From the UHGV virus genome UHGV-1732480: a stretch of 21,195 bases of DNA. One strand, given 5' to 3'. The DNA comes from a virus. The notes under the pieces are model-generated. The model did no database searches, was not told the origin of the DNA, and saw nothing but the letters and a program-made list of their open reading frames with translations. Shown piece after piece: positions 15,444-21,195 of this stretch (the first letter of the stretch is position 1; each line of letters opens with the position of its first letter). The position numbers and the translations under genes are program-made.

Positions 15444-15646
15444 AACCTCACTCCCAGCGGACGACGGCGACGTCGGGTTGTCCCCAGTACCGACTCCGCA
15501 TCATTGATCGCCCGGTTAAGCTCATCCAGAGAAGCCTCCGTATATTCAATTCTGCGACCATCTTTCTGGACAGACACCACCCGTTTACCGGTTAATAAAT
15601 CAAGGCGCGCCTGACGCAGCGCCTGCAGTTCAGCGACTGTAACCAT
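15440..15646 (-). CDS. W: Head-tail joining protein W
   Basis: 68-aa ORF MVTVAELQALRQARLDLLTGKRVVSVQKDGRRIEYTEASL... matches recalled lambda gpW. Confidence 0.9.
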   Translation of the reverse strand: MVTVAELQALRQARLDLLTGKRVVSVQKDGRRIEYTEASLDELNRAINDAESVLGTTRRRRRPLGVRL

Positions 15647-17481
15647 TCACTCCTCCGGACAGCTTCGCTGCCAGTTCTTTAAGGGTTGGCCGGGTCGTCT
15701 CTTCTTCCCGGGATTTTGCCAGTACAGCCAGATCAAGCTGCCAGCGTTGCACGGACACACGTAATGCCGCATAGGCATACACCAGGCAGTCCAGCGCTTC
15801 GTTACGCCGCTTTTTGTTATCCCACAGCAGACGCATCTTTCCTTTTTCCCACTTCTCCACAAGCTCTTCCGCGACCAGTTGCTGCGCCTCTGTCTGCGAA
15901 AAAATCTCCGGATCATCAGGAAAACGGATGGCATACGACGTGGCTTCATCCGCAGGAGTGGGATCGGCTTTCATACGGGCATAGAGAATTTCTTTTGCGG
16001 TGTCCGTCCCCACTTCACACAGATACACGCCCCGCTGATTGCGGGTTTTCGGCATGGTGATCACCGGCTTGCCATAGACAGATGCGCCTTTTACCGGCAG
16101 CACCCGGAAAACACCGTGTTTTTTTGACCTCTGATAGACAATTTCACCATCGATCCCCCCGGTGTCCCAGCAGACACGGGAAATGGTCATTTCGGTTCCG
16201 TCTGCATGGCAGTATTTTTTGTTGATCGCCGCATCCACACGTAACAGCGTCTCTTCCTCATCGGGACGGCCCATAATGATGATTTTATCCACCAGAAAAG
16301 CTTCCTCTCCCGGTGCCCATCCCCAGACATACATCTCAAAACGGTTTCGCTGCGAGTCAATGCCCGCCGTCAGATAAACCACCCGGGCTGGCACCGCCGC
16401 CGTGTAATGCACGACCTTATCCATCAGTACCTGGTGATCGAGTTTTTCGCCCACGGCCTCTTCCCAGGTCTCGCCCAGCGTGGTGTTCACAAAGGTTTTC
16501 AGGCCGTTGGGATCTTTCAGTGCATCCAGCCAGTCATAGACTATCTGTACCCAGGTGGTGAACGGACTGTACGCCGTCCAGATATGGAACGTGATGGAGC
16601 GCGGCGGCGGAATTTCATTATCCGCGGCGCTGAAAAACGTCAGACCGTCACGGGTCCACATCCCCGTGTTTTCACAGATCCTTACACCGCAGATTTCGCG
16701 TACACCGCTCTTGTAAGCACGCCATGCACTTCCGCAGATACTGCGCCTCCCCACAGTGCGGGCAGGGCACATAGAAACGCATGAAATGCGCCGACTCGTT
16801 GGCCGCTTTTTCGATCTGGCAGGTGCCTTTGATTTTAGGCGTCGAGCCGCGAATGGATTTGGGCCATACAGAGCCCTCAATACGTTTATCCCCAAGCAGG
16901 GTTGGCGACCCCTCTTTTTCGACATCCGGTTCGAACGAGGAAAGTTCGTCATAGCAGACCACGTCCACGGATTTTTCACGGTAGTTTTTAGCGGCAGCCC
17001 CGCCCAGGCACCAGAAGCCCACGCCCGATGAAAAACGTTTCAGCGTGAGGGTATTATCACGATGTTTACGCCCAAACCACGGTGCAAGATCGAGTAAAAC
17101 CGGCACATCCCTGATCGTGGGTTCCACATGAGATTTCATAAAATCTTCAGCAGCAGAATCCGTGGGCTGGAAAAGAAGGCTGTTGCGTGATTTATGCTCA
17201 ATAAAATAAGCCTCCACTCCCAGCAACATCTTTGTATAACCAACACGGGCAGATTTAATCAGATTAACAGTGCGGATCCGGTCATTCCCCATGCTGTTCA
17301 TGATGGCAACCTGAAACGGCAGTGTTTCCCACCGCCCCGGGGTGTAAGATGACTCTTTCGGAAGGTAATAATGTCGATCTGCCCACTGAACTGTCGTCAG
17401 AGGGACAGGAATTTTTAGCGCAAGGAGGCCGGTTGCTATCGCTCCTGCAGAATTAGCCGCCCTCAGTTCGTCTGAAATCAT
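15630..17481 (-). pseudogene. A: Terminase large subunit A, split between two reading frames (frameshift in about 16681-16734)
   Basis: ORF 16672..17523 carries the lambda gpA-like N-terminal part (…WADRHYYLPKES…RWETLPFQ…PCPHCGEAQYL) and ends in a stop. ORF 15630..16979, in another frame, carries the C-terminal part (ICENTGMWTRDG…ALDCLVYAYAALR). Start set at ATG 17481 (MISDEL…). Confidence 0.75.
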
Positions 17482-18001
17482 CAATCCACCTGCGCACATT
17501 CTCACCGGCTTCAGAAGCCACATCGGATGCTTTCGCGATTTCAGTTTTCACAGCATCAAGATGTACGGGTGATATATCAGGGTATTTACGCTGCAGTGTC
17601 TGAGGGACACGGACAAGGATCCCTGATATATTCTGTGCCACTCGCTGAAAGATGTAGGTAAATAACTCCGTCTCGAGGACAAGGCCTTCCTCACGAGCAT
17701 TTTTCAGCTCCTGTGCATCGGCCTGTGCCTTCGTCAGTCGGTAACGTTCGTAATCAATGGTGCAGGGCTGAAGGTCTGATTCGCTGGCAGCCCTCAAATC
17801 CTCGATCTCTTTACGGAGTTTTTCGTTTTCAATATCAGCTTCCCTCTGCGCATACCACTGAATGGCAGCAGTTGTATCAAAAACTGATTCAGTCCCTTTC
17901 CCTCCACCAGAAACTAGTGGTAACCCCTGACTCTGCCAGGCGGTGATGGTCCTGACATCAACGCCAAAAATATCGGCCAGTTTTTTCTTATTGACGTTCA
18001 T
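17453..18001 (-). CDS. Nu1: Terminase small subunit Nu1
   Basis: 182-aa [39 protein letters not shown]... matches recalled lambda Nu1; 3' end overlaps A start as in lambda. Confidence 0.93.
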
Positions 18002-19197: not shown

Positions 19198-19671
19198 CTA
19201 TTTCAGGCACTGAGTGCGGATATAGTCCTGCGCCCCTTCCAGCTGCTTCTGCATCAGCATCAACCGTTCTCTGAGAGTGAAATAATCCCGTTCAGCGGTG
19301 TCTGCCAGTTGGGGGCCGGTTGCATTATCCACGCGGGCGGTGCCGGTGGCTTCACGCACGGGACCTGGACAGGTGGCGTTGATACGCAGGCGCTTACGAC
19401 CAGCGGCAACGTCAGCGCGAAGAGTTTCATTTTCAGCTCTCGCATCGGCTAATTCCCTCGAGTATTTTGCATCGAGCGCAGCAACATCGCGCTGGCGCAC
19501 CTGCATATCAGTAATGGTTGCGTTCGCCAGCTTCAGTTCACTGGCTTTGTTATCGCGCTGCGCTTTGTAGGTAATCGCGTTATCACGGTAATGGTCTGTT
19601 GCCATCCACAGCGCTCCACAGGCCACCAGCAGAATAACGATAAACGCGGAAAGCATTCGGTTTATGTTCAC
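19198..19671 (-). CDS. Rz: i-spanin Rz
   Basis: 157-aa ORF with N-terminal TM and ...[45 protein letters not shown]... matching recalled lambda Rz. Confidence 0.9.
19260..19445 (-). CDS. Rz1: o-spanin Rz1 (lipoprotein), embedded in the +1 frame of Rz
   Basis: 61-aa [23 protein letters not shown]... with lipobox VSAC and proline-rich [11 protein letters not shown], matching recalled lambda Rz1. Confidence 0.85.
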
Positions 19672-19799
19672 CCCAGCAGCCCCGACGAAGACAACATCAT
19701 CCAGGCCATGGAAAGAAAAAGAGCAACCAGCATTAGTGAAAATGAAATGCCGACAATTACACAGAGGATCTTCGCCAGCGTTATGAGTTTGTCTGACAT
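19668..19799 (-). CDS. Small (43 aa) single-pass membrane protein, unknown function
   Basis: ATG at 19799 preceded by AAGGGAGGA; protein [43 protein letters not shown]; its stop overlaps the GTG start of Rz (GTGA), suggesting translational coupling. Confidence 0.5.
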
Positions 19800-19813
19800 G
19801 CTTAATCCTCCCT

Positions 19814-19996
19814 TCACGATTTCAACGCAATGACCAGTTTTGCCAGCCCATACAGCATCGGGGACACAGCAACACCGACCGCCACCCACTTAATGGCAAA
19901 AGCCAGTGCTCTGCTGATGTCATCAGTTACAGGCGCTTTCAGTTCAAGGCCGTTTTTCATAGTCAACCTCAACAGAATTCGTTTATACTTTTCCAT
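19814..19996 (-). CDS. Small (about 60 aa) protein with charged N-terminus and C-terminal hydrophobic segment, unknown function
   Basis: [60 protein letters not shown]; AGGGAG upstream. Start uncertain (GTG 20029, ATG 19996 or ATG 19960). Its 3' end holds the SD of the downstream 43-aa ORF. Confidence 0.4.
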
Positions 19997-20030
19997 GTTC
20001 TCCCTTGCCTTATCCAAGGTCAGAAACACA

Positions 20031-20070
20031 AAACCCCGCTTGCAGCCAACAAACGGGGTTTTTACTTTTA
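20031..20070. terminator. Hairpin with flanking A- and T-tracts (CCCCG...CGGGG stem); intrinsic-terminator-like in both orientations, downstream of R
   Basis: Plus strand AAACCCCGCTTGCAGCCAACAAACGGGGTTTTTACTTTT; on the minus strand the stem is followed by TTTTGTGTTT. Confidence 0.45.
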
Positions 20071-20152
20071 TTCACTTAGGTTTTGCCAGTTCTCAGGATT
20101 TCGTGTTATCCGTCCGCATTAGCCAACGTCATTTTTCAACAAAATATTCTGC

Positions 20153-20686
20153 TTATTTGTCAATTCCCCAGCACGCCAGCGCGCTCTCCTGGTCACGCCG
20201 TGAGACCTGTCCATAGCAGTTATTTGAACGAATACGGCAGTCTCTGCCACCGTCCTTAATCCACCAGCGAATCGCCTCACATGCTCCCCTGCGATCGCCA
20301 GCATTAATTCGTCTGTAAAACGTCGACGGGAAACACTTACCGGGACCAATGTTGTACGGACAGAATGACGCGATCCCCGCTTTCTGGGGTTCGGTCAATG
20401 GCACTTTGATGTTTTTCTCCACCCATGCCAGCGCCTTATCACGCTCAATGGCGTTAACCCGGTCGCATTTTTCCTTCGACAACTTCATGCCCGGAACGAC
20501 AGGTTTGCCATCCACCAGGATGGCACCGCGGCAGATGGTCCAGATACCCGCGCCATCACGGTATGCCGTGGTGTGGTTACCTTCCTTTTCATCCAGAAAC
20601 TGGTCGAGAATGTCAGGCGCAGGCGCACCAGCGGCAATCAGCGCCAGAACGGCAGCCGACAGGCCGTATCTGATTTTTGCGTTCAT
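20153..20686 (-). CDS. R: Endolysin R, T4-lysozyme-like (GH24) with N-terminal SAR (signal-anchor-release) domain
   Basis: 177-aa ORF MNAKIRYGLSAAVLALIAAGAPAP...EGNHTTAYRDGAGIWTICRG... The hydrophobic, Gly/Ala-rich N-terminus is typical of SAR endolysins; resembles the lysozyme of Qin/933W-type prophages as I recall it. Confidence 0.9.
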   Translation of the reverse strand: MNAKIRYGLSAAVLALIAAGAPAPDILDQFLDEKEGNHTTAYRDGAGIWTICRGAILVDGKPVVPGMKLSKEKCDRVNAIERDKALAWVEKNIKVPLTEPQKAGIASFCPYNIGPGKCFPSTFYRRINAGDRRGACEAIRWWIKDGGRDCRIRSNNCYGQVSRRDQESALACWGIDK

Positions 20687-20791
20687 GGATATTTATCAGG
20701 ATTTATCGGTTTCTGAGCCCTGGATATGTTTATCAGTTCCAGCCTGTTGCCTCAGGCTGCTAACAGGTCAATACAATCATGAGGATTATTT

Positions 20792-21064
20792 ATGGACAAT
20801 AACACCATTTCTCTACAGGAGTTGCTCGACAGCATTTCCAGGCTTCGGGAAGACGTGAATACCCTTACCGTCGCCTTCTCATATCTGGCATTCTCAATTC
20901 CAAGGGAACAGATGCAATCAACGCTGGCATCAATCCAGTTTGAATCATGCAATCCCAAATGGTCTCAGGAACAACAAGACTCTTTCAGGCGGCTTGCTGT
21001 ATTACTGGATGAAAAATATGCTGGTAAAATTACCATTTCGGCGGACTCTTCAGAGAACCCGTAA
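20792..21064 (+). CDS. Hypothetical 90-aa protein, divergent from R
   Basis: ORF with GAGGA 7 nt upstream of ATG; weak hairpin plus T-run downstream (about 21098-21125); no TM segment; no homolog recognised. Confidence 0.4.
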   Translation: MDNNTISLQELLDSISRLREDVNTLTVAFSYLAFSIPREQMQSTLASIQFESCNPKWSQEQQDSFRRLAVLLDEKYAGKITISADSSENP

Positions 21065-21195
21065 TTATTCCCGGTAGTTTTCCTCTGTAGGTTATCAACA
21101 CATCCTGCGCCTCTAAAATTACGGGGCGCTTTTCCGGCGACTGCTCATCCCCTTCACATAACCCGGCAGCAACATCCAGGAAGACCTGTCTGATG

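Follow-up and report, generated by a model that had tools for sequence, protein, structure and literature searches.

A probable opposite-strand moron in a P21/Qin-type lambdoid lysis cassette

In lambdoid phages, the Q-modified late transcript runs through the holin gene, the endolysin gene R and the genes downstream of them. Lambdoid genomes also carry extra genes, or morons, such as bor and lom of lambda and those of HK97 and HK022. We analysed the end (positions 20,687 to 21,195) of the virus genome UHGV-1732480, a stretch of 21,195 nucleotides (nt) hereafter called the window, where a plus-strand open reading frame (ORF) of 90 amino acids (aa) points away from the minus-strand gene R. The described cassette with which this locus can be compared gene by gene is essQ-ydfR-rrrQ-rzpQ of the Qin prophage of Escherichia coli K-12: holin, ydfR N-terminal domain and R are homologous at 81-83% DNA identity, with R itself 83% identical to rrrQ. 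In Qin, however, the ydfR stop codon overlaps the rrrQ ATG and no opposite-strand gene is present. Homology between Qin and the window breaks at 20696 and 21169, window 20697-21168 (472 bp) replacing 92 bp, and the YdfR C-terminal tail differs, the K-12 protein having 103 aa and the present one 114 aa.

We propose that the region is a P21/Qin-type lambdoid lysis cassette carrying, between ydfR and R, a moron on the opposite strand that has its own promoter and encodes a soluble, protein-binding product. The probability that we attach to this reading is about 0.68.

The cassette and the gene on its opposite strand

The last 596 bases of the window (20600-21195) match many complete E. coli chromosomes at 100% identity, and these were used to see past position 21195. 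RefSeq labels in these genomes read 'hypothetical protein', 'YdfR family protein' and 'lysozyme'. In the identical locus L001, the late strand carries, in order, a Q-type antitermination gene, two tRNAs with a few small genes, the holin gene, ydfR, the lysozyme gene, Rz and the terminase genes; iraM also lies upstream of the holin gene, along with Q and the two tRNAs. The 90-aa ORF is on the opposite strand, between ydfR and rrrQ. The features of this region are as follows.

20153-20686, minus strand: R, an rrrQ-type phage lysozyme gene, the first late gene downstream of the insert (PF00959 Phage_lysozyme, E=3e-24; RefSeq 'rrrQ lysozyme').
20744-21035, no strand assigned: insert of about 292 bp specific to cassettes with the 90-aa gene, relative to the ydfR-116 type (alignment with locus L163).
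20792-21064, plus strand: the 90-aa gene (phrog_2411, WP_000369850.1, 'Ybl58'), called from substitution ratios, a frame open in 21 of 21 alleles and homologues.
21030-21195, minus strand: 3' end of ydfR (DUF1327), comprising its last 54 codons and stop, the full gene reaching about 21374 (PF07041; RefSeq 'YdfR family protein').
Equivalent to 21379-21594, minus strand: P21-type class II holin gene (PF04971 'P21 holin S', E=9e-33, in L001), beginning about 185 bp past the window.

Between the holin gene and the 90-aa ORF there is ydfR alone, and the Q-type gene lies about 2.4 kb further upstream. The complete order holin-ydfR-ORF-R was found in 129 of the 162 loci fetched. The holin is thus just past the window edge, and its apparent absence is a window-edge artefact. 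An earlier sequence-only reading had placed the 90-aa ORF where the holin is expected and had left R with no adjacent upstream late gene. Neither idea holds, because L001-type genomes show the PF04971 holin gene, beyond ydfR, and ydfR itself preceding R on R's own strand. The suspicion of the same reading that a gene enters from outside the window was well founded: the minus-strand frame runs uninterrupted from the window edge as far as a TAA at 21030-21032, overlaps the 90-aa ORF by 35 nt, and has clear homology to DUF1327/YdfR, PF07041 scoring 26.3 bits on the 54-aa fragment in the window (curated cut-off 25) and 145 bits on the full 114-aa protein of L001.

From this gene order and the established behaviour of lambdoid late operons, R is probably reached by ordinary Q-modified late read-through. 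Transcription from the promoter downstream of Q would cross the holin gene and ydfR, then the 90-aa gene in antisense, and so enter R; nothing terminator-like was seen on the late strand in this region. For a scan of this kind the main value of the result is negative, in that the missing holin and the missing upstream late gene both come from where the window ends.

A 90-aa ORF near R could be taken for the holin or antiholin of the cassette in an unusual orientation. Its position is the one point in favour of that idea, to which we give next to no chance: the protein is hydrophilic, with a maximum 19-residue hydropathy of 0.75 and no hydrophobic stretch of membrane-spanning length, it matches no holin family in Pfam or PHROGs, and a bona fide P21-type holin is encoded two genes upstream. 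On the grounds of hydropathy, family searches and the separate PF04971 holin, this candidate was ruled out.

The ORF nevertheless has the signature of a protein gene. It runs from an ATG at 20792 to a TAA at 21062-21064 and is preceded by a Shine-Dalgarno sequence, GAGGA (20781-20785), 6 nt upstream of the ATG. A profile search matched it over its full length to phrog_2411 (E=1.1e-58, residues 1-90 on profile positions 1-90), a family of no known function, and to no other family. We found 62 homologues, and the fetched loci held 21 distinct DNA alleles. In all 21, including a Citrobacter copy of 58% identity, the ATG is retained and the frame runs for 83-90 codons without a stop, and the Shine-Dalgarno sequence and length are likewise conserved. 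Relative to the window allele, the Nei-Gojobori ratio of non-synonymous to synonymous substitutions (dN/dS) lies between 0.09 and 0.38, at dS values that range from 0.27 to more than 1, and the pooled ratio of the corresponding proportions (pN/pS) is 0.35 in the ORF frame and 0.96-1.45 in unrelated frames. The antisense frame that shares the ORF's wobble positions mirrors its signal (0.41), and variable columns fall 49/38/77 on codon positions 1/2/3. Distant homologues of 81-97 aa have a motif in common with the 90-aa protein, and protein-level homologues at 30-40% identity occur in other genera. By these comparisons the 90-aa ORF is a real, conserved protein gene and not an annotation artefact, in line with the part of the sequence-only reading that had a plus-strand ORF oriented away from R. 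A 68-aa minus-strand ORF at 20752-20958, in the antisense frame with the mirrored signal, was rejected as a shadow frame, since it contains stop codons in 16 of the 21 alleles.

We also considered that the ORF is untranslated and that the region is only an antisense transcript or a transcriptional buffer before R, as any RNA made from the plus strand here would be able to pair along its whole length with the late messenger RNA (mRNA) between ydfR and R. We regard this as highly improbable, given the purifying selection seen in the protein frame between alleles whose synonymous sites are saturated, the conservation of start, ribosome-binding site and length, and the 30-40% identical homologues in genera that have no late operon to oppose. 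Of the two observations that, by the sequence-only reading, would have spoken against it, clear homology of the minus-strand frame to a known protein was made; of the other, a canonical arrangement of Q and S upstream together with an untranslated plus-strand ORF, the first half is present, and the second does not look to be the case.

In its distribution and composition, the gene behaves as an accessory element. About a fifth of complete E. coli genomes (1207 of 5426) have it, with carriers that include BL21 (in the Rac prophage), ST131 strains and Shiga-toxin (Stx)-converting prophages. The guanine-plus-cytosine (GC) content of the insert is 0.44, against 0.55 for R, Rz and the whole window. 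In the very common ydfR-116 cassettes, R follows after 63 nt and there is no opposite-strand gene. Elsewhere the 90-aa gene adjoins unrelated lysis genes (L087) or occurs without the ydfR N-terminal domain (L089/L090), its Citrobacter relative is upstream of a lambda-S-type holin gene, a CHAP endolysin gene and Rz/Rz1, and a relative on IMG/VR contigs (L100) lies between the tail genes M and L. Wherever the family occurs in a phage, its gene lies opposite the strand of the late genes. Presence and absence, GC shift and orientation are hallmarks by which the 90-aa gene is, judged from sequence, a moron-type extra gene. Two Stx-related records were noted besides: in L086 (4580-5820) the Shiga-toxin A and B genes lie just upstream of the holin gene and an IS66 element replaces R beside the 90-aa gene, and in the phage record OQ243220.1 (H28) the gene is also found in a Stx-converting prophage.

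These contexts bear on whether the protein might regulate lysis, by inhibiting the pinholin or a secreted endolysin or by setting the timing. Most copies lie between ydfR and R, and the Citrobacter copy stands directly upstream of another holin/endolysin type, as would be expected of a regulator. On the other side, the strand is opposite to that of the lysis genes, so that there would be no co-expression, the protein has no membrane segment, one copy lies between tail genes (L100) and another on the Serratia chromosome, with no lysis genes near it, and closely related cassettes work without the gene. A regulator of lysis is therefore, in our estimate, very unlikely.

The slot between ydfR and R is not reserved for this gene. 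In ydfR-176 cassettes it holds a different opposite-strand gene of 86 aa (L166, 2979-3239, minus strand of that locus; phrog_2572, unknown function), which shares with the 90-aa locus the first approximately 50 nt upstream of R, a TATGTT element with a hairpin, and the overlap with the ydfR 3' end, and differs from it in a much stronger terminator (GCCGC...GCGGC followed by eight T). Homology of the two genes was not supported (hhalign E=0.11). The alignments indicate that the ydfR-R slot is an exchange site for different opposite-strand small genes.

Expression signals around the gene

The spacer between R and the ORF (20687-20791, 105 bp) and the DNA downstream of the ORF contain the following candidate elements. 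Those that the sequence-only reading had described (the spacer hairpin, the direct repeats, and the downstream hairpin with its T-run) are all present within 1 nt of where it had put them.

20687-20743, no strand assigned: 5' region of R with three TTTATCRG repeats (CYGATAAA on the late strand), also present in the loci L163 and L166, which lack the 90-aa gene.
20702-20730, plus strand: candidate promoter P1, with -35 TTTATC (20702-20707), a 17-nt spacer and -10 TATGTT (20725-20730); predicted start near 20737.
20740-20759, plus strand: hairpin with a 7-bp stem, CAGCCTG (20740-20746) and CAGGCTG (20753-20759), and a 6-nt loop, predicted at the mRNA 5' end.
20747-20777, plus strand: candidate promoter P2, TTGCCT, a 19-nt spacer and TACAAT; rank 8 of 211,640 placements.
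21107-21133, plus strand: hairpin GCGCCTC (21107-21113), 9-nt loop, GGGGCGC (21123-21129), then TTTT (21130-21133); possible terminator inside the ydfR coding sequence.

The repeats read ATTTATCAG at 20691-20699 and ATTTATCGG at 20701-20709. These two copies, 5' of R, had been noticed from the sequence alone; a third at 20728-20736 had been overlooked. TTTATCRG occurs four times in the window, where 0.86 occurrences are expected, and three of the copies fall within 45 nt; one copy is missing in the allele L090. As it is common to cassettes that lack the ORF, 20687-20743 belongs to the 5' region of R. R itself has no evident Shine-Dalgarno sequence, and the three CYGATAAA repeats that precede its start are kept with or without the 90-aa gene; a role in translation initiation or as a binding site is possible.

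In a scan with an approximate sigma-70 weight matrix, P1 ranked 50 of 211,640 placements. TATGTT or TATTGT is kept at its -10 position in E. coli alleles, in Citrobacter (L003), in L099/L100 and in the 86-aa gene cassette L166; the equivalent place holds CATAAT in Serratia and CAGGTT in L163. The 19-nt spacer of P2 is long, a transcript beginning about 7 nt past its -10 would start within the Shine-Dalgarno sequence, and conservation of P2 is limited to E. coli alleles. The spacer hairpin is contained in a 51-nt fold of -14.9 kcal/mol (z=-2.4; 4 of 200 shuffles as good). A hairpin recurs 9-12 nt past the -10 in every distant member of the family, with stems that differ and still pair (CGTCAGTG/CACTGGCG, CGTCAGCG/CGCTGGTG, CATCCATGT/GCATGGATG, CGCCAGTGT/GCACTGGCG and TTTTCT/AGAAAA), and G-T pairs in the L003 and L099 stems make pairing possible on the plus strand only. 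Such a covarying hairpin after the -10 suggests an mRNA that begins with a stem-loop. The hairpin at 21107-21133 was missed by the terminator scan because its loop exceeds 8 nt. It is conserved across alleles, with a T-G pair becoming T-A in L092. No LexA box with CTG-N10-CAG spacing was found in 20687-20791 of the E. coli copy, and the only result from Rfam was a match to the rimP leader, below threshold and outside the region of interest.

We propose that the 90-aa gene would use its own weak sigma-70-type promoter, most likely TTTATC-17-TATGTT, and that its leader would start with a stem-loop and carry a good Shine-Dalgarno sequence, while a hairpin and T-run taken from ydfR sequence may serve as its terminator. 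The gene faces the late operon and would therefore be expected to be active while that operon is off, for instance in a lysogen, and to be shut down by convergent late transcription after induction. Both the use of this promoter and the timing of expression are inferred from sequence.

The protein, its relatives and the YdfR tail

The 90-aa product has an isoelectric point of 4.5. AlphaFold2, run with 22 sequences, gave a model with a predicted local distance difference test score (pLDDT) of 75, with helices at residues 8-34, 38-52 and 59-77, the tail being disordered from residue 79 onwards. The product is thus modelled as a soluble, acidic three-helix protein of about 10 kDa. Neither lysis nor the binding of nucleic acids is its role in our reading, and most likely it would bind another protein in the host cytoplasm. 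Searches of Pfam, NCBIfam and PADLOC with the 90-aa protein returned no match, and PADLOC defence profiles matched neither it, nor three distant homologues, nor YdfR; the homologue P0077 had a marginal PADLOC match only (13.6 bits, E=0.005). Fold searches of the Protein Data Bank (PDB) and of viral folds with the model gave generic helical matches only. The pair formed with ydfR does not resemble a toxin-antitoxin module, the genes being convergent and not co-transcribed, with no toxin or antitoxin family match. In the literature, we found nothing on ybl58/WP_000369850, WP_000370546, phrog_2411 or phrog_2572, and nothing specific on morons in lysis cassettes.

The family extends beyond phages. 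An exhaustive profile search of 1.8 billion representatives yielded 20 proteins, and a wider word-seeded profile search yielded 94, many of them of about 92 aa. The latter come from Serratia species, Yersinia aleksiciae, Sodalis, Chania and Acerihabitans. A metagenome scan returned mostly E. coli-type loci and one new context (L161), and viral-contig scans with six distant homologues (P0072, P0074, P0065, P0063, P0077 and P0073) found nothing. The Serratia homologue (P0272 and relatives; profile E=2e-22) is chromosomal, between dinI and bssS in a conserved pyrC-dinI-X-bssS-solA order, on the same strand and after dinI's terminator; the Sodalis ligni homologue is also chromosomal and outside any phage. 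The Serratia gene resembles the one in the window in encoding a homologous protein and in having, in its 5' region, a similar -10 element with a hairpin after it, and differs in that it is not in a prophage, has no convergent partner and lies on the strand of its neighbours. The comparison indicates that the family protein functions without phage partners. Since these Serratia and Sodalis copies work without a phage partner, we favour a host-directed role, in host physiology or stress, over one in lysis.

dinI is an SOS gene. In Serratia (L170, 4973-4988), a LexA-box-like sequence of the form CTG-N10-CAG, CTGAATGCTTTAACAG, lies just upstream of the homologue's Shine-Dalgarno sequence, and the neighbouring dinI has a textbook LexA box, CTGTATAAATATCCAG; a site of this kind is absent from the E. 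coli prophage copy.

The other gene at the overlap is ydfR, in which the final dozen codons preserve I-T-G-S-L-x-x-P even between highly dissimilar sequences. Third positions in this tail change (ACG/ACT/ACC, GGT/GGG/GGC, TCT/TCC/TCA/TCG, CTG/TTG/TTA, CCG/CCT/CCA), a pattern explained by minus-strand translation only, since in distant loci the stretch lies beyond the plus-strand stop. Within E. coli, ydfR codons 69-102 have a pS of 0.14 and a pN of 0.09 (ratio 0.63), a low divergence at both kinds of site. By its codon pattern, the ydfR tail is real coding sequence that overlaps a real 90-aa gene, and the question of which of the two overlapping ORFs is real, left by the sequence-only reading, was misplaced, as each carries its own coding signature. 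YdfR variants of 104, 114, 116, 176 and 183 aa (P0133, P0149, P0153, P0221) have residues 1 to about 112 in common and diverge right after G-S-L-K-T-P-P, the 104-aa form earlier, at about residue 82. The ydfR 3' end is therefore a recombination junction for alternative downstream modules. That the tail is part of the insert was rejected, as the 116-, 176- and 183-aa variants have it too. In the AlphaFold2 model of YdfR, the tail is predicted to be disordered; the model is poor (pLDDT 50) and unfit for a fold search.

The 90-aa family recurs opposite this tail. In E. coli, in Citrobacter L003, and in L161, L091 and L099/L100, a member of the family converges with an ORF on the late strand that has the tail motif at its end; among these the partners are YdfR in E. 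coli, a 238-aa ORF in L003, a 77-aa ORF in L161 and an 85-aa ORF in L099/L100, with unrelated N-terminal parts. This raises the possibility that the 90-aa protein binds the disordered YdfR-type tail (I-T-G-S-L-K-x-P-P), neutralising leaky late product until antisense late transcription silences its gene. Four independent phage contexts with convergent motif-ending ORFs of unrelated N-terminal parts, synonymous variation showing that the motif is selected as a peptide, and the predicted disorder of the tail are all in keeping with such a pair. So is L100, in which both genes together form the insertion between the tail genes M and L. A regulator of YdfR is plausible in itself, as K-12 YdfR binds RNase E's catalytic domain (PMC13232886). 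That K-12 protein, however, lacks this tail and binds via residues 1-72. Moreover, the Serratia and Sodalis homologues have no convergent partner, the same tail occurs in the very common 116-aa YdfR variants without an opposite-strand gene, the tail frame in L090 and L091 has no evident start codon, the partner proteins resemble one another only weakly in profile comparisons, over stretches of just 14-27 residues, and co-inheritance may reflect mere adjacency on one mobile DNA segment. On balance, we consider such a binding pair unlikely. The association could be an interaction or shared travel on one DNA segment, and the evidence from Serratia and from YdfR-116 argues for the latter. A more elaborate scheme, which we hold to be quite unlikely, would unite these observations: a family of small, stress-linked cytoplasmic proteins of Enterobacterales, chromosomal beside dinI in Serratia, would have been captured repeatedly by lambdoid phages as a cassette on the opposite strand, together with a short late-strand I-T-G-S-L-K-x-P-P module that is fused to any late protein encoded upstream of it, the products would interact, and the choice of strand would switch an RNase E-binding, YdfR-type activity between lysogeny and lytic growth.

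Several observations weigh against the moron reading preferred here. No family, defence-system or fold match hints at a biochemical activity of the 90-aa protein. Both promoter candidates are weak by consensus, and a standard promoter scan called none in the spacer. Several E. coli alleles have a degraded 5' hairpin. The putative terminator has four T only, is not part of the minimum-energy fold of its 86-nt stretch, and is unchanged in L163, which lacks the ORF and where it codes for EKRPVILEAQ of YdfR; the downstream hairpin was accordingly dropped as an insert-specific terminator, the same sequence being ydfR coding sequence in cassettes without the ORF. Finally, a motif-ending late ORF stands beside the 90-aa gene in four phage contexts, which a purely independent moron leaves unexplained.

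Other features of the prophage and comparison with known morons

Two further parts of the window depart from the expected layout. R and Rz are about 480 bp apart (19672-20152), whereas in related cassettes the R stop codon overlaps the Rz start. The gap contains a strong minus-strand terminator-like hairpin of 14 pairs (20062-20030) and a 71-aa minus-strand ORF at 19814-20029 (phrog_1115, unknown function), and a small ORF with a hydrophobic stretch was noted at 19668-19889. The gap looks like a second insertion in the lysis cassette. In the terminase large-subunit region (15630-17523), there are two overlapping minus-strand ORFs in different frames.

15630-16979, minus strand: terminase ORF of 449 aa.
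16672-17523, minus strand: terminase ORF of 283 aa, overlapping the former in another frame.

This split suggests a frameshift, and the prophage may therefore be defective. In L001, the same terminase gene is interrupted by an IS66 element.

The 90-aa gene appears to be a selected protein gene with a conserved expression unit and with chromosomal relatives beside dinI in Serratia, present in about a fifth of complete E. coli genomes without an assigned function or literature, and as such it is a reasonable target for a small functional study. It differs from the described lambdoid morons in its product, predicted to be cytoplasmic and acidic, not a membrane protein or lipoprotein, and without known activity. 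It differs further in sharing 35 nt with the 3' end of the late gene next to it, and in that its expression from the prophage is predicted only. In other respects it compares well with bor and lom of lambda and with the extra genes of HK97 and HK022: its presence between conserved late genes is variable, its GC content is lower than that of its surroundings, it has candidate promoter-like and terminator-like signals of its own, and, like bor, it is oriented independently of the late operon.

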